Source: a virus. Taken from it: DNA of 64,000 nucleotides. Below the pieces are notes generated by a model. That model saw nothing but the letters and a program-made list of their open reading frames with translations, was not told where the DNA came from and ran no database searches. Below, piece after piece: positions 2,548 through 60,706 of the stretch (positions are counted from its first letter, which is position 1; each line of letters begins with the position of its first letter). The stretch spans positions 3,248 to 67,247 of IMG/VR virus record IMGVR_UViG_3300028195_000197; one strand, written 5' to 3'. Made by a program: the position numbers and the translations under genes.

Positions 2548-3264
2548 TTATTCCTTTGCCCAAGGAGGAAGCCTTTTCGGTTTTCCTGCAAAATTAAATG
2601 GGTGACTTGTCTTTATCCCAACGGAATTATACCACTTCACCTTATCATCTATAGTATCTGGATGCCACGACTTGTGAAGAAGAGCCATAGGCACTTTAAG
2701 TTCTTCATAGTCTGACGATATTCCTCTATAAGTAGCATGATGCTTTTGCTCATCTGCGTATATGTCTAGTTCATCAGGTCGCCATGCCCATAAAGCCAAA
2801 TAATCCTTATCAAAATCTCTATTCATATAAGGGAAGAACTCTCTATCTCCCCACATATATAACCTAAAAGCATTGACTTGAGATTTACTTGTATGTTCCA
2901 GTACCTTCCTAGCATTTCTTCTCAATGTATAAGTAGGAACATCGTCCATATCATCCAATATTAGCCAATCTGGAGATAGTTTCTTCGCTTTTTCTAGCAC
3001 AAAATTTATGTGAGGATTATCTGGATTCCACGAACATCCAGTTGGAAACTTTTCCACGACATCATAATTATGTATAATAACTTTCTTATTCTTGGATAAC
3101 AGGTTCAAAGAATCATCTGTACTTCCACCATCTGAAACTACAATAGAATCTGCAAAGTCGTATCCGTGCAAAAATCTTTCTATATTCTTCTCTTCGTTTA
3201 GACATCTAACAGCCACCACAATATTGACAGATTTTTTCATGCTAATATCTTTTAGCCTTTTCAC
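2548..3264 (-). CDS. GT2-family glycosyltransferase
   Basis: LNEE..I, DGGSTD, DxD-like LDDMDD. Confidence 0.85.
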   Translation of the reverse strand: MKRLKDISMKKSVNIVVAVRCLNEEKNIERFLHGYDFADSIVVSDGGSTDDSLNLLSKNKKVIIHNYDVVEKFPTGCSWNPDNPHINFVLEKAKKLSPDWLILDDMDDVPTYTLRRNARKVLEHTSKSQVNAFRLYMWGDREFFPYMNRDFDKDYLALWAWRPDELDIYADEQKHHATYRGISSDYEELKVPMALLHKSWHPDTIDDKVKWYNSVGIKTSHPFNFAGKPKRLPPWAKE

Positions 3265-3823
3265 ACATAAACCAAAACTCTTGGTTAGTATTCTTTCTCC
3301 ATATCACATTCCATCCAGAACGCTTCAATAAGAAATTCCACTGATCTTCTTCCAATACAGAATAATGTCCCTGCCCTACACGCCCCCAATAGGCGGGGTT
3401 TGGAAGAACAAGGCATAGGAAGTGTGCTGATACCCTGTACCACTCCATTAGGGTAAGCAGTGGGGCAGGACTATGCTCAAGGGAATGACGAGAGAAGATA
3501 AGTCCAAAGGATTCATCTGCAAACTCTTCTAAGAAACTAAAGTCTCCGTTGATAACATTCTTTCCTAAACCTTTTAATTTCTCTACATCCATTCCGTTTG
3601 AGATACCAGTGTATTCAATGCCTAATTTCTTGAAAAATCCTTCTGCAATAGCAGCATCTCCGCACCCAACATCAAGGACAGTTTTTACACCCTTTAACCC
3701 GCTTATCCATTCTGTCATAATGCCTCGCATAAGCGCAGTATGTCCTTTATCAGGAGGAGATGGGTAGTCATCTTTTATAAGTTCGTTTAAAAAGATGTTC
3801 CAATTCCTGAAATCTCTCAGCAT
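3242..3823 (-). CDS. Class I SAM-dependent methyltransferase (probably sugar O-methyltransferase)
   Basis: VLDVGCG, SRHSLEH; glycan-cluster context. Confidence 0.8.
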   Translation of the reverse strand: MLRDFRNWNIFLNELIKDDYPSPPDKGHTALMRGIMTEWISGLKGVKTVLDVGCGDAAIAEGFFKKLGIEYTGISNGMDVEKLKGLGKNVINGDFSFLEEFADESFGLIFSRHSLEHSPAPLLTLMEWYRVSAHFLCLVLPNPAYWGRVGQGHYSVLEEDQWNFLLKRSGWNVIWRKNTNQEFWFMCEKAKRY

Positions 3824-11722: not shown

Positions 11723-11765
11723 ATCTTATCAGAAAATACCTAGGTGCAGATTAGAATTAGATTAG
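11723..11765 (-). promoter_or_regulatory. TAAT-box promoter
   Basis: CTAAT-N6-CTAATCT-N19-TAAGAT. Confidence 0.7.
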
Positions 11766-12655
11766 TATTTATCTTCACACAACCATGACTCATATCTAAC
11801 AACTCTACCAACTGTAGGTTGACTAATACCTCCACATATCTCTCCTATCTCTCTTTGCGAGTAATTTCCTGTTTTCCATAATCTACGCATCTCTCTAGCA
11901 ACATCACAATTTATTTTTGAAAGAGCGTGTTCTTCTTCTCGTGGAGCAGAGTTCTTTATATTTTGTTTATGTGCGCGGGATAAAGTTTTTTCTGGATACT
12001 TTGGAACACCTCTACCTAAATCTTTGCGGATAATCTTTCCTATCATAGCAGAAGACACTCCCCATATATCTCCAATTTCTTGTTGTGTGTAATCTCCAGA
12101 CATATACAAGTTCTGTACTTCTTTATAGTCGGGTTTTGGTATAAGCAACTCACGTTGTTCTGGAACACCTTTTCCTAAATCTTTCTTTACAATTCTACTA
12201 ACTGTACGCCTACTCACATTATATATTTTACTAATCTTTTTTGTAGAAAGGTTAGTATCTTTATACAAATTTTGTATCTCTAATTCTTCATCTAAGGTTA
12301 AAGCAGAAACCTTTCTTTTCATTTCTTCTGACATAATACGACCTTCTGCATGTACATCCGCATATTTAGATAAATTATAATCCTGTCCCCACTCAACTAC
12401 ATTATCCAAATACCATTGCTCTCTATCATATATAGATCCCCTATCTACCACTTCTTCTAAAATACTAAATTCAAAAGATGTTTCTCCATGAACATTCCAT
12501 GAGTTCTGCAAAAGCGGATTGGGGTGAGCATTTCTTCTAAGAAAACTTTTATGATGATTCCACCTATGTACAATATCTATACTACTCCCAATGTAAATTC
12601 TTCCATTCTCTAAGTTTACTATCTTGTATATTCCAGACACATTATTCATATCCAT
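11762..12655 (-). CDS. Free-standing GIY-YIG homing endonuclease with tandem HTH domains
   Basis: SGIYKI...YIGSS, EQ.YLD, YN; three HTH repeats. Confidence 0.9.
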   Translation of the reverse strand: MDMNNVSGIYKIVNLENGRIYIGSSIDIVHRWNHHKSFLRRNAHPNPLLQNSWNVHGETSFEFSILEEVVDRGSIYDREQWYLDNVVEWGQDYNLSKYADVHAEGRIMSEEMKRKVSALTLDEELEIQNLYKDTNLSTKKISKIYNVSRRTVSRIVKKDLGKGVPEQRELLIPKPDYKEVQNLYMSGDYTQQEIGDIWGVSSAMIGKIIRKDLGRGVPKYPEKTLSRAHKQNIKNSAPREEEHALSKINCDVAREMRRLWKTGNYSQREIGEICGGISQPTVGRVVRYESWLCEDKY

Positions 12656-12660
12656 TCCAA

Positions 12661-12760
12661 AACAAATAGCGGCTAATGAAATTCGAGTGTTTGCTTATGA
12701 CACAAGTTCACTAACCGCTATTTGTTCTCGAAGTCTTATGTCATAAGCATAAAGAGTATA
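12661..12760 (-). ncRNA. Pseudoknot-capable structured 5' leader with -10 TATACT
   Basis: 20-bp stem 12661-80/12707-26; loop segments complementary to 12727-32 and 12739-49. Confidence 0.6.
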
Positions 12761-12771
12761 CCATTAAAATA

Positions 12772-12800
12772 AAAAGAGTGCAAGAAATTCTTGCACTCTT
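12772..12800 (-). terminator. Rho-independent terminator after capsid gene
   Basis: AAGAGTGCAAGAA/TTCTTGCACTCTT followed by T-run. Confidence 0.85.
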
Positions 12801-12824
12801 AATCTAAATCGGACTAATCTTATC

Positions 12825-14012
12825 TTAATCGTTCGATAAGTGGACTACTGGACAGGTTGATACCGATCTCCCACTGAACAAGCTCGTATATTTACCATGA
12901 GCGCATCGAGCTTTGGCAACTAGGACAGTTTTCTTCCAAATCTGGAACGCAATTGCAGTACATCCAGGAGCTAAGTCCTTGAAAGCCAATGGGATTTGAG
13001 TCTTACGGAATATCAAAGGTTCTCCGTTGTGGCTCATACGCAGAGCGTAAAGGCTGGATTGGAATGTAGTTGCACTTGAAGCTGTGCGAGTAAAGTTACT
13101 ATCCGCAACAACCATGAGCGTACCGATGCCAGTATTGACTTCACCTGCGAAGTTGTAACCAGGAACGATGCGACTTCCGTCATTGTGATTTACAAGTTGC
13201 GAACCTTGATAACCAAGTTGGAAATATGCGCTCATCATTTCTTGGATGGCAGTGGGATGACCGAAAACTGCGGTAGGTTTAGCACAACCTTCTGCTAAGA
13301 AACGGTCAAAGTTTGCACCAGAGAACGTGCCAGATGCCTCACTCGAAGCGTTTGTATGTGAGCCATTGCCAGAGGTGATGAGAGTTTCAATGCCATCATA
13401 TTCGAGAGCGTTAGAGCTTGCGTTACCACGAACTAAGAGGCGATCTTCGCCATTCAGTACGAGGGTTGCCATCAAAGCCATTTCTTTTGCTTTCAAATTA
13501 GCAACTGCCTGATTAGCTAACGTATTTACACCAGCAACACCAGGAAGTCCTTGACCAGCAGGCATAGGCCCGTTCAAACTATCAATACCTACACCAAAAC
13601 CGCCTTGCGACATGCCTGCTACAGCAGCAGAGTGCATGATGTCAGAAAGGGTTAGAGATTTGTAAGCGCCAATGTTTTTTAGTGTGGCAGTAACATTATC
13701 ACCATCATGCTCATAATTTTCAGGGCATGCTCCATCCGCAAATGAAACATAAGATGAACCAGAGACAAAAGCAAGTTCATCCATCTCTCGATAAGTAAAT
13801 GCTTTCAGTCCAGTGCTTTCATCTGGAATAGCCCGAAGCAAATTTACTTCTTCGCACATAGCGAGTAGTTCAGTCGTGTCTAAGGGGGTAGGGTATTGTG
13901 CAGCAAAATCATCAGGAGTAGAAACTCCAGGGAGTACAGGGTCTGTTGCTTTTGAAACAAATCCCTGTTCTGCTACTTGGTCTTGACCAAGATTTAATAC
14001 TAATTCAGGCAT
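12825..14012 (-). CDS. Major capsid protein
   Basis: Follows protease/scaffold; strong RBS, own promoter and terminator; RGN.....EYDGI motif. Confidence 0.8.
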   Translation of the reverse strand: MPELVLNLGQDQVAEQGFVSKATDPVLPGVSTPDDFAAQYPTPLDTTELLAMCEEVNLLRAIPDESTGLKAFTYREMDELAFVSGSSYVSFADGACPENYEHDGDNVTATLKNIGAYKSLTLSDIMHSAAVAGMSQGGFGVGIDSLNGPMPAGQGLPGVAGVNTLANQAVANLKAKEMALMATLVLNGEDRLLVRGNASSNALEYDGIETLITSGNGSHTNASSEASGTFSGANFDRFLAEGCAKPTAVFGHPTAIQEMMSAYFQLGYQGSQLVNHNDGSRIVPGYNFAGEVNTGIGTLMVVADSNFTRTASSATTFQSSLYALRMSHNGEPLIFRKTQIPLAFKDLAPGCTAIAFQIWKKTVLVAKARCAHGKYTSLFSGRSVSTCPVVHLSND

Positions 14013-23513: not shown

Positions 23514-23798
23514 CTAAATATAATCTTCCCTACCAAACATAACAAGATACTTTTTTCTACGTTCTTGAAGCATTTTCACATTTTCTTCCGATGCTCCCAT
23601 TCTATGATATTCAGAATGACACTCAGAACAATGTAATCCGATATTCTTCCAATCCTTCGCAATCTTACCACGAGATTTAGGAATAATGTGACTTCTTTCT
23701 GTACCTAAATTCCAACAAGTGCCTTTTTTTAGACCAATGCACCGACTATTAAATAACCATAAGATAAACTCTAAGCTATCACTAGGTTCTTTTTGCAT
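23514..23798 (-). CDS. Small HNH-type nuclease
   Basis: HIIPKSRG...N...C.ECH..YH. Confidence 0.75.
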   Translation of the reverse strand: MQKEPSDSLEFILWLFNSRCIGLKKGTCWNLGTERSHIIPKSRGKIAKDWKNIGLHCSECHSEYHRMGASEENVKMLQERRKKYLVMFGREDYI

Positions 23799-55920: not shown

Positions 55921-55966
55921 CCCCCTAATGATACTCTAAAAACTAGGAATTTTCTATTCTTGAAAT

Positions 55967-56206
55967 CTACCAAGAATCATAAGGGTCTCTATCATCTCTT
56001 TCTTCTTTTTCAAATAAGTCATCTAACCACTTCACAATTTTGTATTTTGTTAACCGATACAGCTTTAAAAATTTCAGGAATTTCTTTTCCTTATCAGAAA
56101 AATGAAACTCAATAAGTTCTCCTGTCATTAAATCATACCCTTCTCCAGAAGGTTCTGGCATAGACGCTTCTAGTATCAAATACTTTAGCCTAGATAATCT
56201 TTTCAT
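55967..56206 (-). CDS. Moron hypothetical protein
   Basis: Own TAATCT-N19-TATTAT promoter at 56242-56284. Confidence 0.55.
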   Translation of the reverse strand: MKRLSRLKYLILEASMPEPSGEGYDLMTGELIEFHFSDKEKKFLKFLKLYRLTKYKIVKWLDDLFEKEERDDRDPYDSW

Positions 56207-56275
56207 TCCATCTTCCTTTTACTAACAAATGTCCAGCCTTTATAATAACACAATTTACATGGTTGAAGATTAAAA

Positions 56276-56332
56276 TTAGATGAGATTATTGATGTGTCTT
56301 ATTTGGCATATCCCCATTACTTTTATAGCCAT
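56276..56332 (-). pseudogene. 18-codon relic of a GIY-YIG endonuclease
   Basis: MAIKVMGICQIRHINNLI* resembles xxSGIYxIxN; GGAGG RBS; same leader as the HNH gene. Confidence 0.5.
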
Positions 56333-56334
56333 TA

Positions 56335-56407
56335 TGCACCTCCATGTGCGATAAGGGGCAGGGGTGATGAAGGAGCATCACCCTTTTCGGCATCCATGCC
56401 TAGCCCC
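56335..56407 (-). ncRNA. Three-way-junction RNA leader, copy 1
   Basis: GGGGCTAGG..CCGAAAAGGGTGATG-CTCCTT-CATCACC.CTGCCCC after TATAAT. Confidence 0.7.
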
Positions 56408-56444
56408 TATTTGGTATATTATACTACAAAACTGCTAACTCATG

Positions 56445-57071
56445 TTAAGGAAGCGCACTCAAATCCGACCTGATGATAACTCCAAACCGCTGATCTGATG
56501 GTTTCGTAGAATCTGCATATCCTCTAAGGACGAAGGATTGTGCCCAGGAATCTCCATAAAGCATCTGTAACTCGGCTGGCTCTACAGGTTGCGCTTTATG
56601 TAAGTGAATCAATAAGTAATCGCCAGTGTCTTCATTATACACGCGAGGTGCGTACACCATGTAATATTGGTTGTTATTGAAACCACCAATGCCAACTTTT
56701 TCCGTTCCTGTCCCTACAGTAGCAGTAGAGAAACCTGCTAATTTAGTATAGATAGAAAGCGGGAAAAGATTCTTAGTGGTAAACGCAAGGTCTACATAAT
56801 CCCGTGTCTGAATAGTGCCTTTTACACCATCAGCATCACAACGAATATCGTTAGCAGTAACACCTTGCATAAAGGTTACATCGGTTACACATGCTAAACC
56901 GATATAAGGATATGAAGATGTACCACTCATACCCCAATAATAACCATCGCCATCAGGGTTATTTAGGGGGTCTGCAAGATAATCTTGTAAATAAATATTT
57001 GGCGCACCATTAATATAAATCTCTTCTTGGGAAGTTGAACTTCCGATTGGTGTTCCTGTAATTAAGGACAC
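56445..57071 (-). CDS. Major tail (tube) protein
   Basis: GGAGG RBS, GTG start; synteny; beta-rich. Confidence 0.75.
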   Translation of the reverse strand: MSLITGTPIGSSTSQEEIYINGAPNIYLQDYLADPLNNPDGDGYYWGMSGTSSYPYIGLACVTDVTFMQGVTANDIRCDADGVKGTIQTRDYVDLAFTTKNLFPLSIYTKLAGFSTATVGTGTEKVGIGGFNNNQYYMVYAPRVYNEDTGDYLLIHLHKAQPVEPAELQMLYGDSWAQSFVLRGYADSTKPSDQRFGVIIRSDLSALP

Positions 57072-57081
57072 TTTAAACCTC

Positions 57082-57759
57082 CTAAACCTTATAAGAAAGG
57101 TTTCTTTCTTTGATTGTTAAATTTCTCGGTAATTCAGGAATATATCTTGTATCCTTAGTTCCTTTAGAAGAATTACACGAACGACATAGTAATTGTACGT
57201 TACCTATAGTTAGATTTCCACCAAGACTTAACGGCTTTATGTGGTCGAGAGTGATGGGTAATTCTTTCGTAAACTCTCTTTCACATTTACCACATCTATG
57301 ATCTTGAACTTCTAACAGATAATCTATTCCTTTACTGGTCAAATCTGCAATGACATTATTCTTTCTATCTCTTCGTCTCTCTAACTGTATCAGAAGTTTC
57401 TTCCTACCTTCTGGTGTTTTTCGCCATTCTTTCTGTCTACTAGCACACTTTTCTTTATTGTTATGATAATAATCTCTAGCGTACTTTCTAGTTTTCTCTC
57501 TATTTTCTTCCGAAGACGCTCTCCATCTTCTCATTCTTATTTTAGCGTTGTGTTTACCTTGCTCAGTTTCTCTATATTCTTTATCCTTCTCACGAAGCAT
57601 CTTTCTATTTCTTTTCTTGTATTCTCTTGTCCAAGCATTTTTACATTCTTTGCAGGAAGAAGATAATCCATCAGACTTATCGCCTTTGTGATACTCACTC
57701 ACATGTTTCTTTTCTTTACACTTACTACAAACTTTCCACTCACCAATTGCTCTAGGCAT
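57082..57759 (-). CDS. Free-standing HNH homing endonuclease
   Basis: CxxC...CK.C N-terminus, DHIKPLS.GG....N...C..CN.SK; start moved to MPRAIG after GGAGG. Confidence 0.88.
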   Translation of the reverse strand: MPRAIGEWKVCSKCKEKKHVSEYHKGDKSDGLSSSCKECKNAWTREYKKRNRKMLREKDKEYRETEQGKHNAKIRMRRWRASSEENREKTRKYARDYYHNNKEKCASRQKEWRKTPEGRKKLLIQLERRRDRKNNVIADLTSKGIDYLLEVQDHRCGKCEREFTKELPITLDHIKPLSLGGNLTIGNVQLLCRSCNSSKGTKDTRYIPELPRNLTIKERNLSYKV

Positions 57760-57761
57760 TT

Positions 57762-57834
57762 TGTACCTCCCAGTACATGTTGGGGCAGAGTGATGTGGGA
57801 GCATCACCTTTTCGGACTTTCCCATCCTAGCCCC
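57762..57834 (-). ncRNA. Three-way-junction RNA leader, copy 2
   Basis: GGGGCTAGG..CCGAAAAGGTGATG-CTCCCA-CATCAC.CTGCCCC after TATAAT. Confidence 0.7.
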
Positions 57835-57845
57835 TTTATTATACT

Positions 57846-57888
57846 CTTATTTTATTCTAATCTATTAGGATATGCAATGTGGTATTAT
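57846..57888 (+). promoter_or_regulatory. TAAT-box promoter (MTase cassette 1)
   Basis: TAATCT-N19-TATTAT with GCAATGTGG. Confidence 0.75.
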
Positions 57889-57912
57889 GTTGAAGAATCA
57901 AGGAGAGAAAAA

Positions 57913-58119
57913 TTGAAGGGAATCTTGGATATTAATGATTTATATGAATTCAGTCTCAACATTTTAGAACCAGTACTGACGGGAATGTTTACCAAAGATG
58001 AATGTGAACATGAAGTGGATTCAAATTTAACTTGTAAGTTATGCAACAAAAAACAAATTGCAGTATTTGGGGAAAATGAAGACTTTGTACGACATATTTT
58101 TATAGAAAAATGGGAATAA
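57913..58119 (+). CDS. Small Zn-binding protein
   Basis: AGGAG then TTG; CEH...CKLC. Confidence 0.5.
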   Translation: MKGILDINDLYEFSLNILEPVLTGMFTKDECEHEVDSNLTCKLCNKKQIAVFGENEDFVRHIFIEKWE

Positions 58120-58130
58120 GGAAAGAAAGG

Positions 58131-59102
58131 ATGAGAGAAATTGAAACTGTTTTCGGGGACTGTCTTCTAGTTAGTAATAAGATACCTGATGAAAGTGTTG
58201 ATTTAATACTGTCAGATGTACCATATGGGATTATGAAAGATTCTCCTAGTACATGGAATAAGAACAATACTAAATGGGATACTGCAATAAGTCCAAAAAA
58301 GATATTTGCTATCGCAAACAGAGTATTAAGAAAAAAAGGTAAATTGATTCTGTTTAGCCAAGAACCTTATACAAACAAACTGATTACATCTGCGATAGCT
58401 GACATTCCATTTAGCTATAGAGCAATATGGGAAAAAAATAGCTTCGCTAATAATTTAGGTGCAAAAAGAAATATGGTGTCCTTTTTTGAAGACATTTTAG
58501 TATTTAGTAAACATTTAGAAAGTGAACGCAATGATGACAATCCATGTAAAGACTATTCGGAGAAGTTATTTGCCTATATAAATAAGCCCCTAACTTTTTT
58601 TAACACTTACTATGGAAATAGTAAGCTAGTTCATTTCTATACTAAAGGAAAACAATTTAGATTGTGTACAGAGAGTATGTATAATAGTTTAATTGACGAT
58701 TTTAACATTAAAAATATGGAAGGGTTTATTAGCTATAAGAAATTAAAACGTTTAGATGAAATATATAAGGGAAGATTTAAAAGTATCTTTAATCTTTGGG
58801 AAGGGGGTAAGTATAAAAGCAACATACTAAAATATAAAAAAGATTCCATCTCTTTTCATCCAACACAAAAACCTGTGATGTTAATGGAAGACCTGATAAA
58901 GACTTTTAGTAATGTTGGTGATGTAGTAGTAGACTTGACTTGCGGCTCTGGCTCTACTTTAGTGGGGTGTAAGAATACTGGACGTGATGGTATAGGGATA
59001 GATAATGGTTATTGCGAAAAAGATAAAATTGTAAATGGTATTCAGTTAAAAGGATTGAAATGGGTAGAAATTGCTCAACTAAGATTGGATAAAGTTCTCT
59101 AA
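58131..59102 (+). CDS. N6-A/N4-C DNA methyltransferase (beta class)
   Basis: GDCL, LSDVPYG, HPTQKPV, DLTCGSGST. Confidence 0.88.
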   Translation: MREIETVFGDCLLVSNKIPDESVDLILSDVPYGIMKDSPSTWNKNNTKWDTAISPKKIFAIANRVLRKKGKLILFSQEPYTNKLITSAIADIPFSYRAIWEKNSFANNLGAKRNMVSFFEDILVFSKHLESERNDDNPCKDYSEKLFAYINKPLTFFNTYYGNSKLVHFYTKGKQFRLCTESMYNSLIDDFNIKNMEGFISYKKLKRLDEIYKGRFKSIFNLWEGGKYKSNILKYKKDSISFHPTQKPVMLMEDLIKTFSNVGDVVVDLTCGSGSTLVGCKNTGRDGIGIDNGYCEKDKIVNGIQLKGLKWVEIAQLRLDKVL

Positions 59103-59392
59103 TCCACTTCTTCAAATAACATGCTCGGAGAACCTCCGCAGCAATGTTTATTTCCTAATCGTTTTTCTAACAGAGCAGAAGCATCCCGCTCATCTACTTC
59201 TAAAACATAACCAGCCTTTAACCACACATACCATTCCTGTGTGACAGACCCTGGAAGTTTTACTTTTGCACTCAATAAGTTTCTCAACTTAATTTTATTG
59301 TAAGTTACAGTCTTCTTAGTATCAAGAGTAACTTTTGTTTCAGGGAGGGTTACTTTTTTTTGTTCGGGTTTAGATTTCTTCTTAGATGCCAT
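59099..59392 (-). CDS. CCG-motif hypothetical (neck-region) protein
   Basis: GAGG RBS; late strand. Confidence 0.6.
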   Translation of the reverse strand: MASKKKSKPEQKKVTLPETKVTLDTKKTVTYNKIKLRNLLSAKVKLPGSVTQEWYVWLKAGYVLEVDERDASALLEKRLGNKHCCGGSPSMLFEEVD

Positions 59393-59418
59393 ATAACCTC
59401 GCTTTGTTTAACTACATT

Positions 59419-59461
59419 CTAATTCTATTCTAATCTACTCAAGTATGCAATGTGGTATTAT
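59419..59461 (+). promoter_or_regulatory. TAAT-box promoter (MTase cassette 2), leaderless
   Basis: CTAAT-N6-CTAATCT-N19-TATTAT-N6-ATG. Confidence 0.75.
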
Positions 59462-59467
59462 TATACT

Positions 59468-60136
59468 ATGTGGAGTTACTACGGAAGAAAGAAGAAAATA
59501 ATAAAGAAATACCCTGAACCAATAACAGGGAGAATTGTTGAGCCTTTTGCTGGAACGGCTAGTTATGCTTATACTCACTGGGAAAATGATTGTATTATCA
59601 TAGACAAATTTGATAAGATAATAAGAATATGGAAATACTTACAAAACGCATCGTCTAAAGACCTACTTTCTCTTCCAGAAGTAGAAAATGGGGAGTGCAT
59701 AAAGCATAAACATGCTCAATTGTGCGAAGAAGAAAGATGGCTCATTGGATTTTGCATAAATAATGCCAGCCAAATTCCAAAACATACAGCGGGAAGGATG
59801 AACTTCAACTCATGGAGCAGAGATAAAATTAGAATATCCAAAGATTTATTCAAAATAAGACACTGGAATTTTATACTGGGGGAATACTCCTGTATAGAAA
59901 ACATTACAGCAGATTGGTTTATAGATCCACCATACCAATTTCAAAACTTGTACACTCATAATGATGTCAATTACTCTGAACTTGACTTATGGTGCAAGGA
60001 AAGAAAAGGTCAAGTTATTGTATGTGAAAATTCAAAAGGGAGTTGGATGGAATTTTCCACACTAACAGAACTGTCTGGACAAAGAACTAAAACTACAGAA
60101 GTTATTTGGCACAAAATTACTGCTGAAAATAAATAA
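59468..60136 (+). CDS. Dam/D12-class N6-adenine methyltransferase
   Basis: SYYG.K, EPFAG, IDPPY. Confidence 0.85.
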   Translation: MWSYYGRKKKIIKKYPEPITGRIVEPFAGTASYAYTHWENDCIIIDKFDKIIRIWKYLQNASSKDLLSLPEVENGECIKHKHAQLCEEERWLIGFCINNASQIPKHTAGRMNFNSWSRDKIRISKDLFKIRHWNFILGEYSCIENITADWFIDPPYQFQNLYTHNDVNYSELDLWCKERKGQVIVCENSKGSWMEFSTLTELSGQRTKTTEVIWHKITAENK

Positions 60137-60148
60137 GGAAAAAATTAC

Positions 60149-60706
60149 ATGGGCAAGAGAAGTGACTTTGAACGTAAATCAAGAGATTATTATGATACAC
60201 CTTATGAAGCAGTAATTCCCCTAGCTTCACATCTACCGAAATCTTTTACTTACATAGAGCCTTGTTCTGGAAAGTCTTATCTTACTTGGCATCTATCTGA
60301 ATTTGGTGGAGATGTTCTTGCTGAATATGACATTGAACCAAAGAATGACAGAATGTCAAAATTAGACGCGCTTACTTTAGCAGAAAGACATATTCCCCAA
60401 GGTACAGATTTCATCATCACGAATCCTCCTTGGATTAGAACAAAGAAATCTGGTTATCTGCTACACAAACTAATTGAAGTGTTTGCTAACATTCGTCCTA
60501 CATGGCTTCTAATAGATTCTGATTGGCACGATACGAAACAATCAGGAAAGTTACTAGATGATTACTGCACTAAGATAGTTCCAATTGGAAGAGTGAAATG
60601 GTTTGGGAACATGACAGGCAAAGATAATTGTAGCTGGTATATGTTTGATAAGAACAAGTGGCACGATTATATTTCCCCCGTAATAGAATTCTATCCTAGA
60701 GTTTAA
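60149..60706 (+). CDS. Adenine DNA methyltransferase (NPPW)
   Basis: DYY.TP, EPC.G, ITNPPW. Confidence 0.85.
   Translation: MGKRSDFERKSRDYYDTPYEAVIPLASHLPKSFTYIEPCSGKSYLTWHLSEFGGDVLAEYDIEPKNDRMSKLDALTLAERHIPQGTDFIITNPPWIRTKKSGYLLHKLIEVFANIRPTWLLIDSDWHDTKQSGKLLDDYCTKIVPIGRVKWFGNMTGKDNCSWYMFDKNKWHDYISPVIEFYPRV

Follow-up and report, generated by a model that had tools for sequence, protein, structure and literature searches.

Divergent int-alpA RNA leaders in the tail gene module of a marine phage carry a candidate anti-Shine-Dalgarno loop

Two copies of a small structured RNA, here termed copy A and copy B, stand on either side of a predicted tail tube gene in a 64,000-nt stretch of viral DNA (positions 3,248-67,247 of IMG/VR record IMGVR_UViG_3300028195_000197). 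This stretch is referred to below as the window, and all positions are coordinates of the whole window. Both copies lie on its minus strand, and each comprises a structured segment of about 55 nt, a small hairpin and, after these, a start codon, which belongs to an HNH endonuclease gene in copy A and to an 18-codon open reading frame (ORF), reasonably read as the relic of a GIY-YIG nuclease gene, in copy B (Table 1). The duplicated element described in the initial annotation, with all of its helices, is therefore present at both sites, and the claim that one type of leader precedes unrelated nucleases applies to the HNH gene and the GIY-YIG remnant. The parent record is 67 kb long and is estimated to be 68% complete; the window sequence was found in marine or seawater metagenomes of 16 studies, possibly including the source sample.

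The structured part of each copy can be drawn as a three-way junction. P1 contains GGGGC/GCCCC in both copies, P2 has 3-4 bp, and P3 has 7-8 bp with the arms GUGAUG/CAUCAC common to both. The junction bases are C-UA-G, C-GAAAA-G and C-CU-G in both, apart from a U for the C before CU in copy A, which yields a G.U pair closing P3. An alignment of the two copies has 75% column identity, and the pattern CTAG..CGAAAAG has just two occurrences, which are the two copies. The loop of the hairpin that follows P1 contains the Shine-Dalgarno sequence (UGGGAG in copy A, AUGGAG in copy B), and the minimum free energy (MFE) fold of copy B, at -32.5 kcal/mol, is the canonical fold. The initial annotation placed each copy after a TATAAT; the hexamer does stand ahead of P1, by 3 nt in copy A and by 9 nt in copy B, but a promoter scan gave 9 sites against 7.3 +/- 2.3 in shuffled sequence, with none for copy A and no -35 element there. 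Since the scan is close to the shuffled level and copy A has no site, no promoter is claimed for the leaders. Hammerhead, twister, pistol and phi29 pRNA were rejected as identities, as the junction bases do not fit their consensus features and none was matched in Rfam.

Table 1. Positions of the leaders, the adjoining genes and the insertions in the window (RBS, ribosome-binding site; R1, covariance model described in the text)
Feature	Position	Strand	Details
Copy A three-way-junction core	57780..57836	-	Sequence reading; R1 29.9 bits, E 1.1e-5; unreported by the Rfam model at E<=10
Copy A TATAAT	57843-57838	-
Copy A P1, GGGGC/GCCCC	57834-57830 / 57786-57782	-	Followed by J1/2 UA
Copy A P2, GGA/UCC, loop UGGGAAAG	57824-57817	-	Followed by J2/3 GAAAA
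Copy A P3, GGUGAUG/CAUCACU, loop CUCCCA	57801-57796	-	Followed by J3/1 CU
Copy A expression platform	57757..57777	-	RBS hairpin UGUAC-UGGGAG-GUACA 57777-57762, spacer, AUG 57759-57757
Copy B core and start of RBS hairpin	56339..56410 (core 56410-56353)	-	Rfam RF02996 40.5 bits; R1 44.0 bits
Copy B TATAAT	56423-56418	-
Copy B P1	56408-56403 / 56359-56354	-
Copy B P2, GGCA/UGCC, loop UGGA	56396-56393	-
Copy B P3, GGGUGAUG/CAUCACCC, loop CUCCUU	56375-56370	-
Copy B expression platform	56330..56349	-	RBS hairpin GCAC-AUGGAG-GUGC 56349-56336, AUA, AUG 56332-56330
HNH endonuclease gene, 225 aa	57082..57759	-	First gene after copy A; PF01844 1.5e-12; PF14279 6e-12; PHROG 1035 'endonuclease VII' 1.3e-29
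Tail tube gene, 208 aa	56445..57071	-	Between the leaders; no Pfam or PHROG match; predicted from fold
Putative relic ORF, 18 codons	56276..56332	-	MAIKVMGICQIRHINNLI, then stop; resembles N-terminus of GIY-YIG nuclease
Insertion 1 (relative to L254)	57096..59105		Methylase 58110-59102 (+), 80-aa ORF 57880-58119 (+), duplicated promoter region, leader A, HNH
Insertion 2	55934..56496	-	Diverged tube 3' end, leader B, relic, 79-aa ORF (55967-56206)
Region upstream of copy A, including TATAAT	57838..57888	-	Copy of the intergenic region before the 91-aa ORF in relatives

Copy B matches the Rfam family RF02996 (int-alpA) end to end, with 40.5 bits against a gathering score of 35.8. The element is thus an already catalogued motif and not a new one, an outcome that the initial annotation had itself named as a refutation. 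Because the Rfam model misses copy A, the membership of that copy rests on R1, a covariance model of the kind proposed in the initial annotation, which was built from 105 distinct cores from outside the window and run over the whole window with filters off. R1 finds both copies, with 44.0 bits (E 1.6e-9) for copy B and 29.9 bits (E 1.1e-5) for copy A, and the next best score in the 64 kb is 10.1 bits. As both scores lie far above the next match in the window, both copies are assigned by sequence comparison to the int-alpA family, copy A being a divergent member; R1 found no third copy in the 64 kb. Among the comparison loci sampled below, 14 of the 17 checked with Rfam were above the int-alpA threshold. 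A blastn search of positions 56200-57900 against 50,697 phage records gave no match, and a scan of viral contigs for the P3 sequence common to both copies gave 2 matches, both by chance and inside unrelated sequence.

The int-alpA motif, catalogued since 2017, is reportedly one of the candidate RNAs that Weinberg et al. published in that year in Nucleic Acids Research. Its usual context is presumably near integrase and alpA genes, which we take to be the origin of the name. The window copies do not have this context, their neighbors being the methylase, HNH and tail tube genes and a tape-measure-like ORF; among 86 ORFs sampled downstream of family members there is 1 integrase, and Phage_AlpA is not among the 25 families listed. 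A literature search for the function of int-alpA returned no functional study, the name appearing merely in a table row or its words being used for gene order. The string 'alpA' occurs nowhere in the main text of PMC5737381, the reported source of 224 candidate structured RNAs.

For comparison, family members were sampled with one degenerate pattern with fixed junction bases, which was applied to viral contigs and to prokaryotic genomes, one for each species. Each scan returned at least 120 stretches, and the sample is neither exhaustive nor random. Retaining instances in which P1, P2 and P3 could all form left 91 unique viral instances, including both window copies, and 30 of 120 genome loci; the pooled set used for loop and box statistics comprises 120 unique instances with 92 distinct P3-loop sequences among the matches listed. 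Co-variation of the helices is partly built into this sample, because the pattern fixed the junction bases and the instances were filtered for P1-P3 pairing. The sample was drawn with no selection for complementarity between the P3 loop and the downstream sequences called boxes here, and the control consisted of 1000 permutations in which P3 loops were paired with the tails of other members.

As the initial annotation had noted, the P3 loop of each window copy is complementary to the loop that bears the ribosome-binding site (RBS). In copy A, UGGGAG is the perfect complement of CUCCCA (6 bp, -10.7 kcal/mol), and in copy B GGAG pairs with CUCC (4 bp, -6.3 kcal/mol). In the nested MFE folds the Shine-Dalgarno bases are unpaired in the hairpin loop, and their duplexes with the P3 loop, of 6 bp in copy A and 4 bp in copy B, are computed pairings. 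Across the family, 103 of the 120 instances have a complement of the P3 loop of at least 5 nt in the 45 nt that follow P1 (permuted mean 23.6, maximum 38). When the 116 instances with 45 nt on both sides are considered, the complement is downstream in 100 and in the 45 nt upstream in 5; it is found in coding sequence 100-145 nt downstream in 23 of 115 instances, and a control with the same-sense word of the P3 loop gave 5 of 120.

Most members carry two such complements. Two boxes were counted in 102 of the 120 instances (permuted mean 29.9, maximum 45), with L025 and L124 as canonical examples, box 1 starting at a median of 9 nt after P1 and box 2 after a further median gap of 8 nt. The P3-loop bases that they complement overlap in 100 of the 102, so that pairing with one excludes pairing with the other, and box 1 is the longer in 54, equal in 33 and the shorter in 15. 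In 87 of 116 instances box 2, or the only box present, lies within a stem of at least 4 bp (shuffled tails: mean 44.1, maximum 56), with the ATG mostly 5-9 nt later. The window copies are among the 14 one-box instances of the 120, and their sole box is the Shine-Dalgarno loop, situated at the usual distance of box 1 (9-10 nt after P1). Because the co-variation is this extensive, the hairpin with the RBS in its loop and its predicted pairing with the P3 loop are regarded as traits of the family and not as peculiarities of this phage. The predicted pairing of the loop with the RBS is thus strongly supported by the sequence comparisons. The proposed link to translation is upheld by a P3 loop that complements the Shine-Dalgarno loop and co-varies with it across 120 instances and 92 loops beyond shuffled controls. 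The further claim that the loops change together between the copies holds only in part, as the P3 loop of copy B pairs with the RBS of copy A (-7.2 kcal/mol) at least as well as with its own (-6.3 kcal/mol).

Box 1 is probably already part of the published int-alpA motif, because the Rfam RF02996 model ends in ..AgGG opposite a CCuU loop. In copy A the P3-loop complement begins 9 nt past P1 and in copy B 10 nt past it, and its equivalent in the Rfam model occupies positions 68-71, about 10 nt 3' of P1. The window copies therefore resemble the Rfam family in the three-way junction, the junction bases and the placement of the P3-loop complement. They differ from it in having no box 1, the pseudoknot partner being the Shine-Dalgarno loop itself; in P2 loops that resemble an RBS and are not self-complementary; in their location in a marine phage tail gene module without a nearby integrase or alpA gene; and in that Rfam files the family as a small RNA (sRNA), whereas the evidence presented here points to a leader acting in cis. 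A U-tract directly follows the G+C-rich P1 in 30 of the 120 instances, where the whole junction resembles an intrinsic terminator before box 1, and the Rfam consensus also reads uuuuuuu there. A terminator was rejected as a general explanation, because just these 30 members have the tract and neither window copy does.

The initial annotation also proposed a kissing interaction between the P2 and P3 loops, which copy A would allow, copy B does not support and the family as a whole does not show. The UGGGA of copy A can form 5 bp with UCCCA (-7.6 kcal/mol) provided that the U.G pair closing P2 is opened; in the MFE fold of this copy the same stretches instead pair as an ordinary helix, in place of P2 and P3. 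The 3 bp available in copy B (-3.1 kcal/mol) are at chance level, 22 of the 120 family members having at least 3 nt. A complement of at least 4 nt occurs in 3 of the 120 (L108, L007 with 6 nt, and copy A) against about 5 when permuted. A role for the P2 loop is nevertheless favored by the leader of L279, a contig from a close relative, which differs from copy B solely in four pairing-preserving changes in the P2 stem and keeps the loop UGGA. A palindrome of at least 4 nt is present in the loop of 28 of 51 distinct P2 hairpins (shuffled 12.1 +/- 2.7, maximum 22 in 2000 shuffles), as in the AAUCGCGA and AACUCGAG types. By a count of loops made here, 6-nt palindromes (UCGCGA, CUCGAG, CUGCAG) occur in 7 of the 13 P2 loops of at least 7 nt. 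Just 2 of the 92 P3 loops contain a palindrome, and the P2 loop is palindromic in neither window copy. These palindromes suggest loop-loop dimerization in the int-alpA family.

Both leaders lie in DNA that is missing from close relatives. Four distinct contigs (L254, L277, L278 and L279) encode tube proteins 93-94% identical to that of the window, and the flanks of L254 are 98% identical to the window in DNA. In blastn alignments, window position 59106 directly abuts 57095 in L254, L277, L278 and L279. At the site of insertion 2 in L254, L277 and L278, 56497 is joined to 55933, with about 75 nt in place of the window's 563 nt. None of these three has the methylase, the 80-aa ORF, either leader, the HNH gene, the relic or the 79-aa ORF, and an R1 search of L254 found no leader. 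L279, which lacks the HNH gene and leader A, carries leader B at the corresponding site; the relic comes next, and then a different ORF, of 76 aa. R1 run over 100 loci with tube homologs (416 kb) found a leader in L279 only. A contig from a seawater DNA run, X9, joins 55933 to 56530, skipping 596 nt, and represents a natural form without cassette 2. The HNH gene with leader A is thus missing in four of four relatives, and cassette 2 in three of four and in the X9 contig. Such presence and absence of a nuclease gene between conserved genes is a feature of free-standing homing endonuclease cassettes, homing itself being a prediction.

The region upstream of copy A aligns by blastn with L254 and L277 over 49 nt at 84-88% identity and with L278 and L279 over 433 nt at 97%, and the homology to relatives stops at the first base of P1 of copy A. 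The leaders thus form the 5' ends of mobile cassettes, and 'portable', the term used in the initial annotation, fits two copies that both sit at the 5' edge of DNA missing from close relatives. The module comprising the methylase, the 80-aa ORF and the promoter region lies upstream of the 91-aa ORF in L278 and L279 (97%) and downstream of a 97-aa ORF in the window. Because of this different placement, the 49-nt promoter region occurs twice in the window, and the tail-module junction is, by these alignments, which concern window segments 57840-58272 and 59106-59463, a mosaic. Another phage record, L095, has the same layout as the window, with a leader (3084-3145), a 142-aa HNH gene, a second and unrelated int-alpA copy (~3687-3762) and then a 202-aa ORF; the second leader is of the one-box form, and its box, UGAGCGA, overlaps the RBS of the 202-aa ORF. 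Three RNA libraries yielded contigs over the tube gene, the 3' portion of the HNH gene and the leader B region but none over 57738-57900; these contigs may be DNA-derived and are not used as evidence.

Among the 91 viral instances, 86 are followed by a same-strand ORF of at least 45 aa that starts within 130 nt. Pfam families assigned to these 86 ORFs are DUF927 (11), DUF1376 (11), HNH (5), HNH_3 (4) and HNH_5 (3, overlapping HNH), then the antirepressor families ANT (3) and AntA (3), Dam (2), and integrase, Rha, ParB_N and others with one each. The HNH-type ORFs with PF01844, five in the tally, include the window's own and those of L124, L095 and L097, and those with PF13392 belong to L046, L071, L101 and L051; in the genome sample, L181 and L193 are of HNH type. 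HNH-type genes are therefore recurrent partners, with at least 8 of the 86. The idea that the leader is dedicated to selfish nucleases does not survive this tabulation, since DUF927 and DUF1376, with 11 each, outnumber them: the leader mostly precedes replication and lysogeny-switch genes and is not nuclease-specific.

With both copies placed in the family and within insertions, and with a complementarity that co-varies across the sample, it is on balance probable that these int-alpA RNAs are cis-acting leaders whose P3 loop pairs with the Shine-Dalgarno sequence and restrains translation of the inserted gene. The compact three-way junction would act in cis as the 5' leader of the next gene, and its P3 loop, with the sequence CUCCCA in A and CUCCUU in B, would be the anti-Shine-Dalgarno part. 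By pairing with the Shine-Dalgarno sequence in the loop of the small hairpin, 5-7 nt before the AUG, it would lower or gate ribosome binding. In canonical members box 1, which starts about 9 nt after P1 and is slightly longer, would compete for the P3 loop with box 2, which overlaps the RBS, and a P3 loop engaged by box 1 would keep the RBS accessible. The window copies would be a compact variant that has lost box 1; the ribosome site would then be the sole partner, and a default 'off' state is therefore expected. Were copy A to toggle at all, its P2 loop (UGGGA) could be an alternative partner of the P3 loop. A leader at the 5' edge of an insertion would keep translation of the inserted gene low within a highly transcribed tail operon. 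This fits the position of the cassettes in the tail operon and the RBS-sequestering RNA structures that hold down homing endonuclease genes in T4-type phages, as described by Edgell, Gibb and Belfort (2010, PMC2988022).

Several points weigh against this proposal. The Rfam int-alpA model gives no match to copy A at E<=10, in either a 1.8-kb or a 116-nt slice, and the MFE fold of copy A (-28.4 kcal/mol) differs from the three-way junction (-22.7 kcal/mol). In copy B the RBS pairing amounts to just 4 bp, and the gene that it leads is dead. The comparison set is non-random, being defined by a fixed-junction pattern and a helix filter among the matches listed. The invariant junction bases have no role in an anti-Shine-Dalgarno explanation, which leaves room for a ligand or protein. 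The type given by Rfam is 'Gene; sRNA' and not cis-regulatory, and this, together with the palindromic P2 loops, may leave room for a role in trans or as a dimer. Finally, the polarity may be the opposite one, because in IncI and IncB plasmids a comparable pseudoknot between a loop and an RBS-proximal sequence activates translation, according to PMC8053102.

The junction bases carry the argument for a true two-state, riboswitch-like sensor, the reading put forward in the initial annotation, in which a ligand or protein at the invariant junction would set the P3 loop either locked or free to cover the ribosome site, the lock being the P2-loop kiss in the window copies and the box 1 pseudoknot in canonical members. 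Nine junction bases and the closing pairs are invariant or nearly so in 105 sequences from phages and several bacterial phyla, which simple occlusion does not explain, and the mutually exclusive pairings of the two boxes with the same loop bases suit a switch. So do the 5-nt P2/P3 complement of copy A (permuted pairings reach at least 5 nt in about 0.2 of 120), the 6-nt complement of L007 and the compensatory substitutions in the P2 stem of L279 around an unchanged UGGA. However, the kiss that such a lock requires in the window is at odds with the family, in which P2/P3 complements of at least 4 nt fall short of the number expected. It would also seem sterically hard in cis, since P2 is 4 bp shorter than P3 and copy B offers 3 bp on a tetraloop, and the complement in copy A is an ordinary helix in the MFE fold. 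The downstream genes have no common metabolic theme pointing to a ligand, and the absence of 'alpA' from the main text of PMC5737381 is a further point against it. A sensor of this kind is accordingly judged unlikely. Activation, in which pairing of the P3 loop with box 2 promotes translation, for example by holding the start region open or recruiting the 30S subunit, would account for a partner at or just 5' of the Shine-Dalgarno sequence. It has a precedent in the RepZ/RepA pseudoknots of IncI and IncB plasmids (PMC8053102), and many downstream genes are, as in those plasmid systems, replication initiators or primases (DUF1376 and DUF927, 11 each of 86). It is nonetheless quite unlikely: box 2 lies in a hairpin loop and not in a stem (87 of 116), so that pairing would not open that hairpin; the paired bases in the window are the Shine-Dalgarno core itself (GGAG, GGGAG), which the ribosome needs; and neither a leader peptide nor an antisense promoter was seen, although no systematic search was made for either.

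If the RNA acted in trans as an sRNA, perhaps dimerizing by way of a self-complementary P2 loop, its placement ahead of genes would be of secondary importance. The Rfam type, the P2-loop palindromes (28 of 51 with at least 4 nt; 7 of 13 with 6 nt in loops of at least 7 nt) and the U-tract in 30 of 120, which could end a short transcript, are in keeping with this. The window copies, however, have neither a palindromic P2 loop nor a U-tract. In the great majority of members the loop complement lies in cis, immediately downstream and beside the start codon, and the orientation agrees with that of the downstream gene in 86 of 91, which makes a role in trans very unlikely. Most improbable is a 5' stabilizer, a processing site or an insertion or homing site at the DNA level, with the match to the ribosome site incidental in this phage. 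Both copies do sit exactly at the 5' boundary of an insertion, with homology ending at the first base of P1 in copy A, and a stable structure at the 5' end of the cassette transcript could protect it. Yet the G.U pairs in the helices and the strict orientation relative to the downstream gene indicate a strand-specific RNA, the loop-box co-variation over 92 loops has no rationale at the DNA level, and no integrase or recombinase adjoins the window copies.

A broader conjecture, which is held tentatively and remains doubtful, is that the int-alpA junction is the sensor of a widespread riboregulator specific to mobile elements that responds to a host or phage signal, or reads RNA dose through P2-loop dimerization, and directs the P3 loop to a decoy box or to the RBS. 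If so, it would determine how strongly early, replication, antirepressor and selfish nuclease genes are translated in phages, prophages and satellites across many phyla, and the copies in the marine phage would have been rewired, with the P2 loop now acting as the decoy.

The favored reading, a cis-acting anti-Shine-Dalgarno leader, invites comparison with known systems. Like the T4-type leaders of I-TevI, I-TevII, I-TevIII, segB and Aeh1 mobE, as set out in PMC2988022, the window copies precede operon-embedded nuclease genes and would cover the Shine-Dalgarno sequence by pairing, and their purpose would likewise be to keep a nuclease low or late. The T4-type structures are, according to PMC2988022, simple, local, gene-specific hairpins relieved by a late promoter inside the hairpin. 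In int-alpA, by contrast, a conserved three-way junction shared with many non-nuclease genes would present the anti-Shine-Dalgarno loop from a distance. No late promoter is evident inside the leaders; as TATAAT lies upstream of P1, P3 and its loop stay in any transcript that starts from it. The rep genes of IncI-alpha and IncB plasmids (ColIb-P9 repZ, pMU720 repBA) are alike in that an upstream hairpin loop pairs beside the RBS of a replication gene, a pseudoknot required for translation there, and a competing partner sets the output (PMC8053102). As summarized in PMC8053102, an antisense RNA competitor and a leader peptide translated first belong to the plasmid systems only; neither was seen here, where no systematic search was made. 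There is no sequence or structure similarity between int-alpA and the plasmid leaders.

Three-way junctions of the purine-riboswitch type have a loop-loop contact between L2 and L3. Their size is similar to that of int-alpA, and the P2 and P3 loops of copy A are complementary. However, the loop-loop complement is unconserved in int-alpA (3 of 120), P2 and P3 differ by about 4 bp and the junction sequences are unrelated; the Rfam scan gave no purine riboswitch match. Taken alone, the window is a modest find, with two divergent members of a known family, one of them before a dead gene. The comparison assembled around it gives int-alpA a concrete and testable candidate function, with an anti-Shine-Dalgarno P3 loop that would change partners between a decoy box and the RBS of the gene behind it. 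For the study of phages, the comparison shows a structured leader that travels as the head of mobile cassettes, including those with homing endonuclease genes, and would add a conserved, reusable device to the gene-specific hairpins of T4.

The genes next to the leaders largely agree with the initial annotation. The HNH gene after copy A carries the PF01844 domain as expected; its relatives in viral contigs number 4 loci with 29-46% identity over parts only, and in a blastp search against the 86 downstream ORFs its sole match was to L095, over 50 residues of the HNH motif. Another small HNH ORF (94 aa; 23514-23798, minus strand; PF01844 29.3 bits in a six-frame search) comes immediately after a 129-aa ORF, without an int-alpA leader. 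The assignment of the relic after copy B is supported by two comparisons, with the L279 version of the ORF, which reads MGIYQIRHINNLI and then stop, and with the N-terminus of the phage's intact GIY-YIG gene (11762-12655), which begins MDMNNVSGIYKIVNLENGRIYIGSS and contains the N-terminal stretches ...SGIYKIVNLENG and ...SGIYKIVNLENGRIYIGSS. On account of these matches, which extend over 13-18 residues, 'GIY-YIG relic' is a reasonable designation. Relative to L279, the window relic has 15 extra bases after the ATG (56315-56329, adding AIKVM) and a change of TAT to TGC that turns GIY into GIC; by this comparison the remnant is still decaying. A six-frame Pfam search of the whole record for GIY-YIG found just the intact gene and left the relic undetected. 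The 79-aa ORF that follows has no Pfam or PHROG match, and as blastp against the phage's GIY-YIG and HNH proteins gave nothing below E 1.8, nothing identifies it as the missing C-terminus of the relic. The intact GIY-YIG gene has a leader of another kind (12656-12830, minus strand), with a terminator-like hairpin and then the nested repeats GCTTATGACA...TGTCATAAGC and ACAAATAGCGG...CCGCTATTTGT; the second inverted repeat ends at the ribosome site, and the leader is not int-alpA.

The methylase of insertion 1 is an N6/N4 DNA methylase (PF01555 2e-27). Beside it, the translations of ORFs 59450-60136 (+), with EPFAGTAS and DPPY, and 60149-60706 (+), with NPPW, contain methyltransferase-like motifs; if these are methylases, there would be three consecutive methylase-like genes, on the other strand from the tail genes. 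The identity of the tail tube gene, proposed in the initial annotation, is borne out by its predicted fold. An AlphaFold2 model made with a 38-sequence alignment reached a predicted local distance difference test score (pLDDT) of 80.3, against 29.9 from the single sequence, and its top Foldseek matches in the PDB are phage tail tube proteins (8xkn_B, E 5.9e-7, TMq 0.56); none of its 241 homologs has a name. Contigs from runs X18 and X9 with a diverged tube allele (56757-57040, 15-21 differences) leave the window at 57040 for unrelated sequence, and represent a co-occurring relative in which another region precedes the tube gene.

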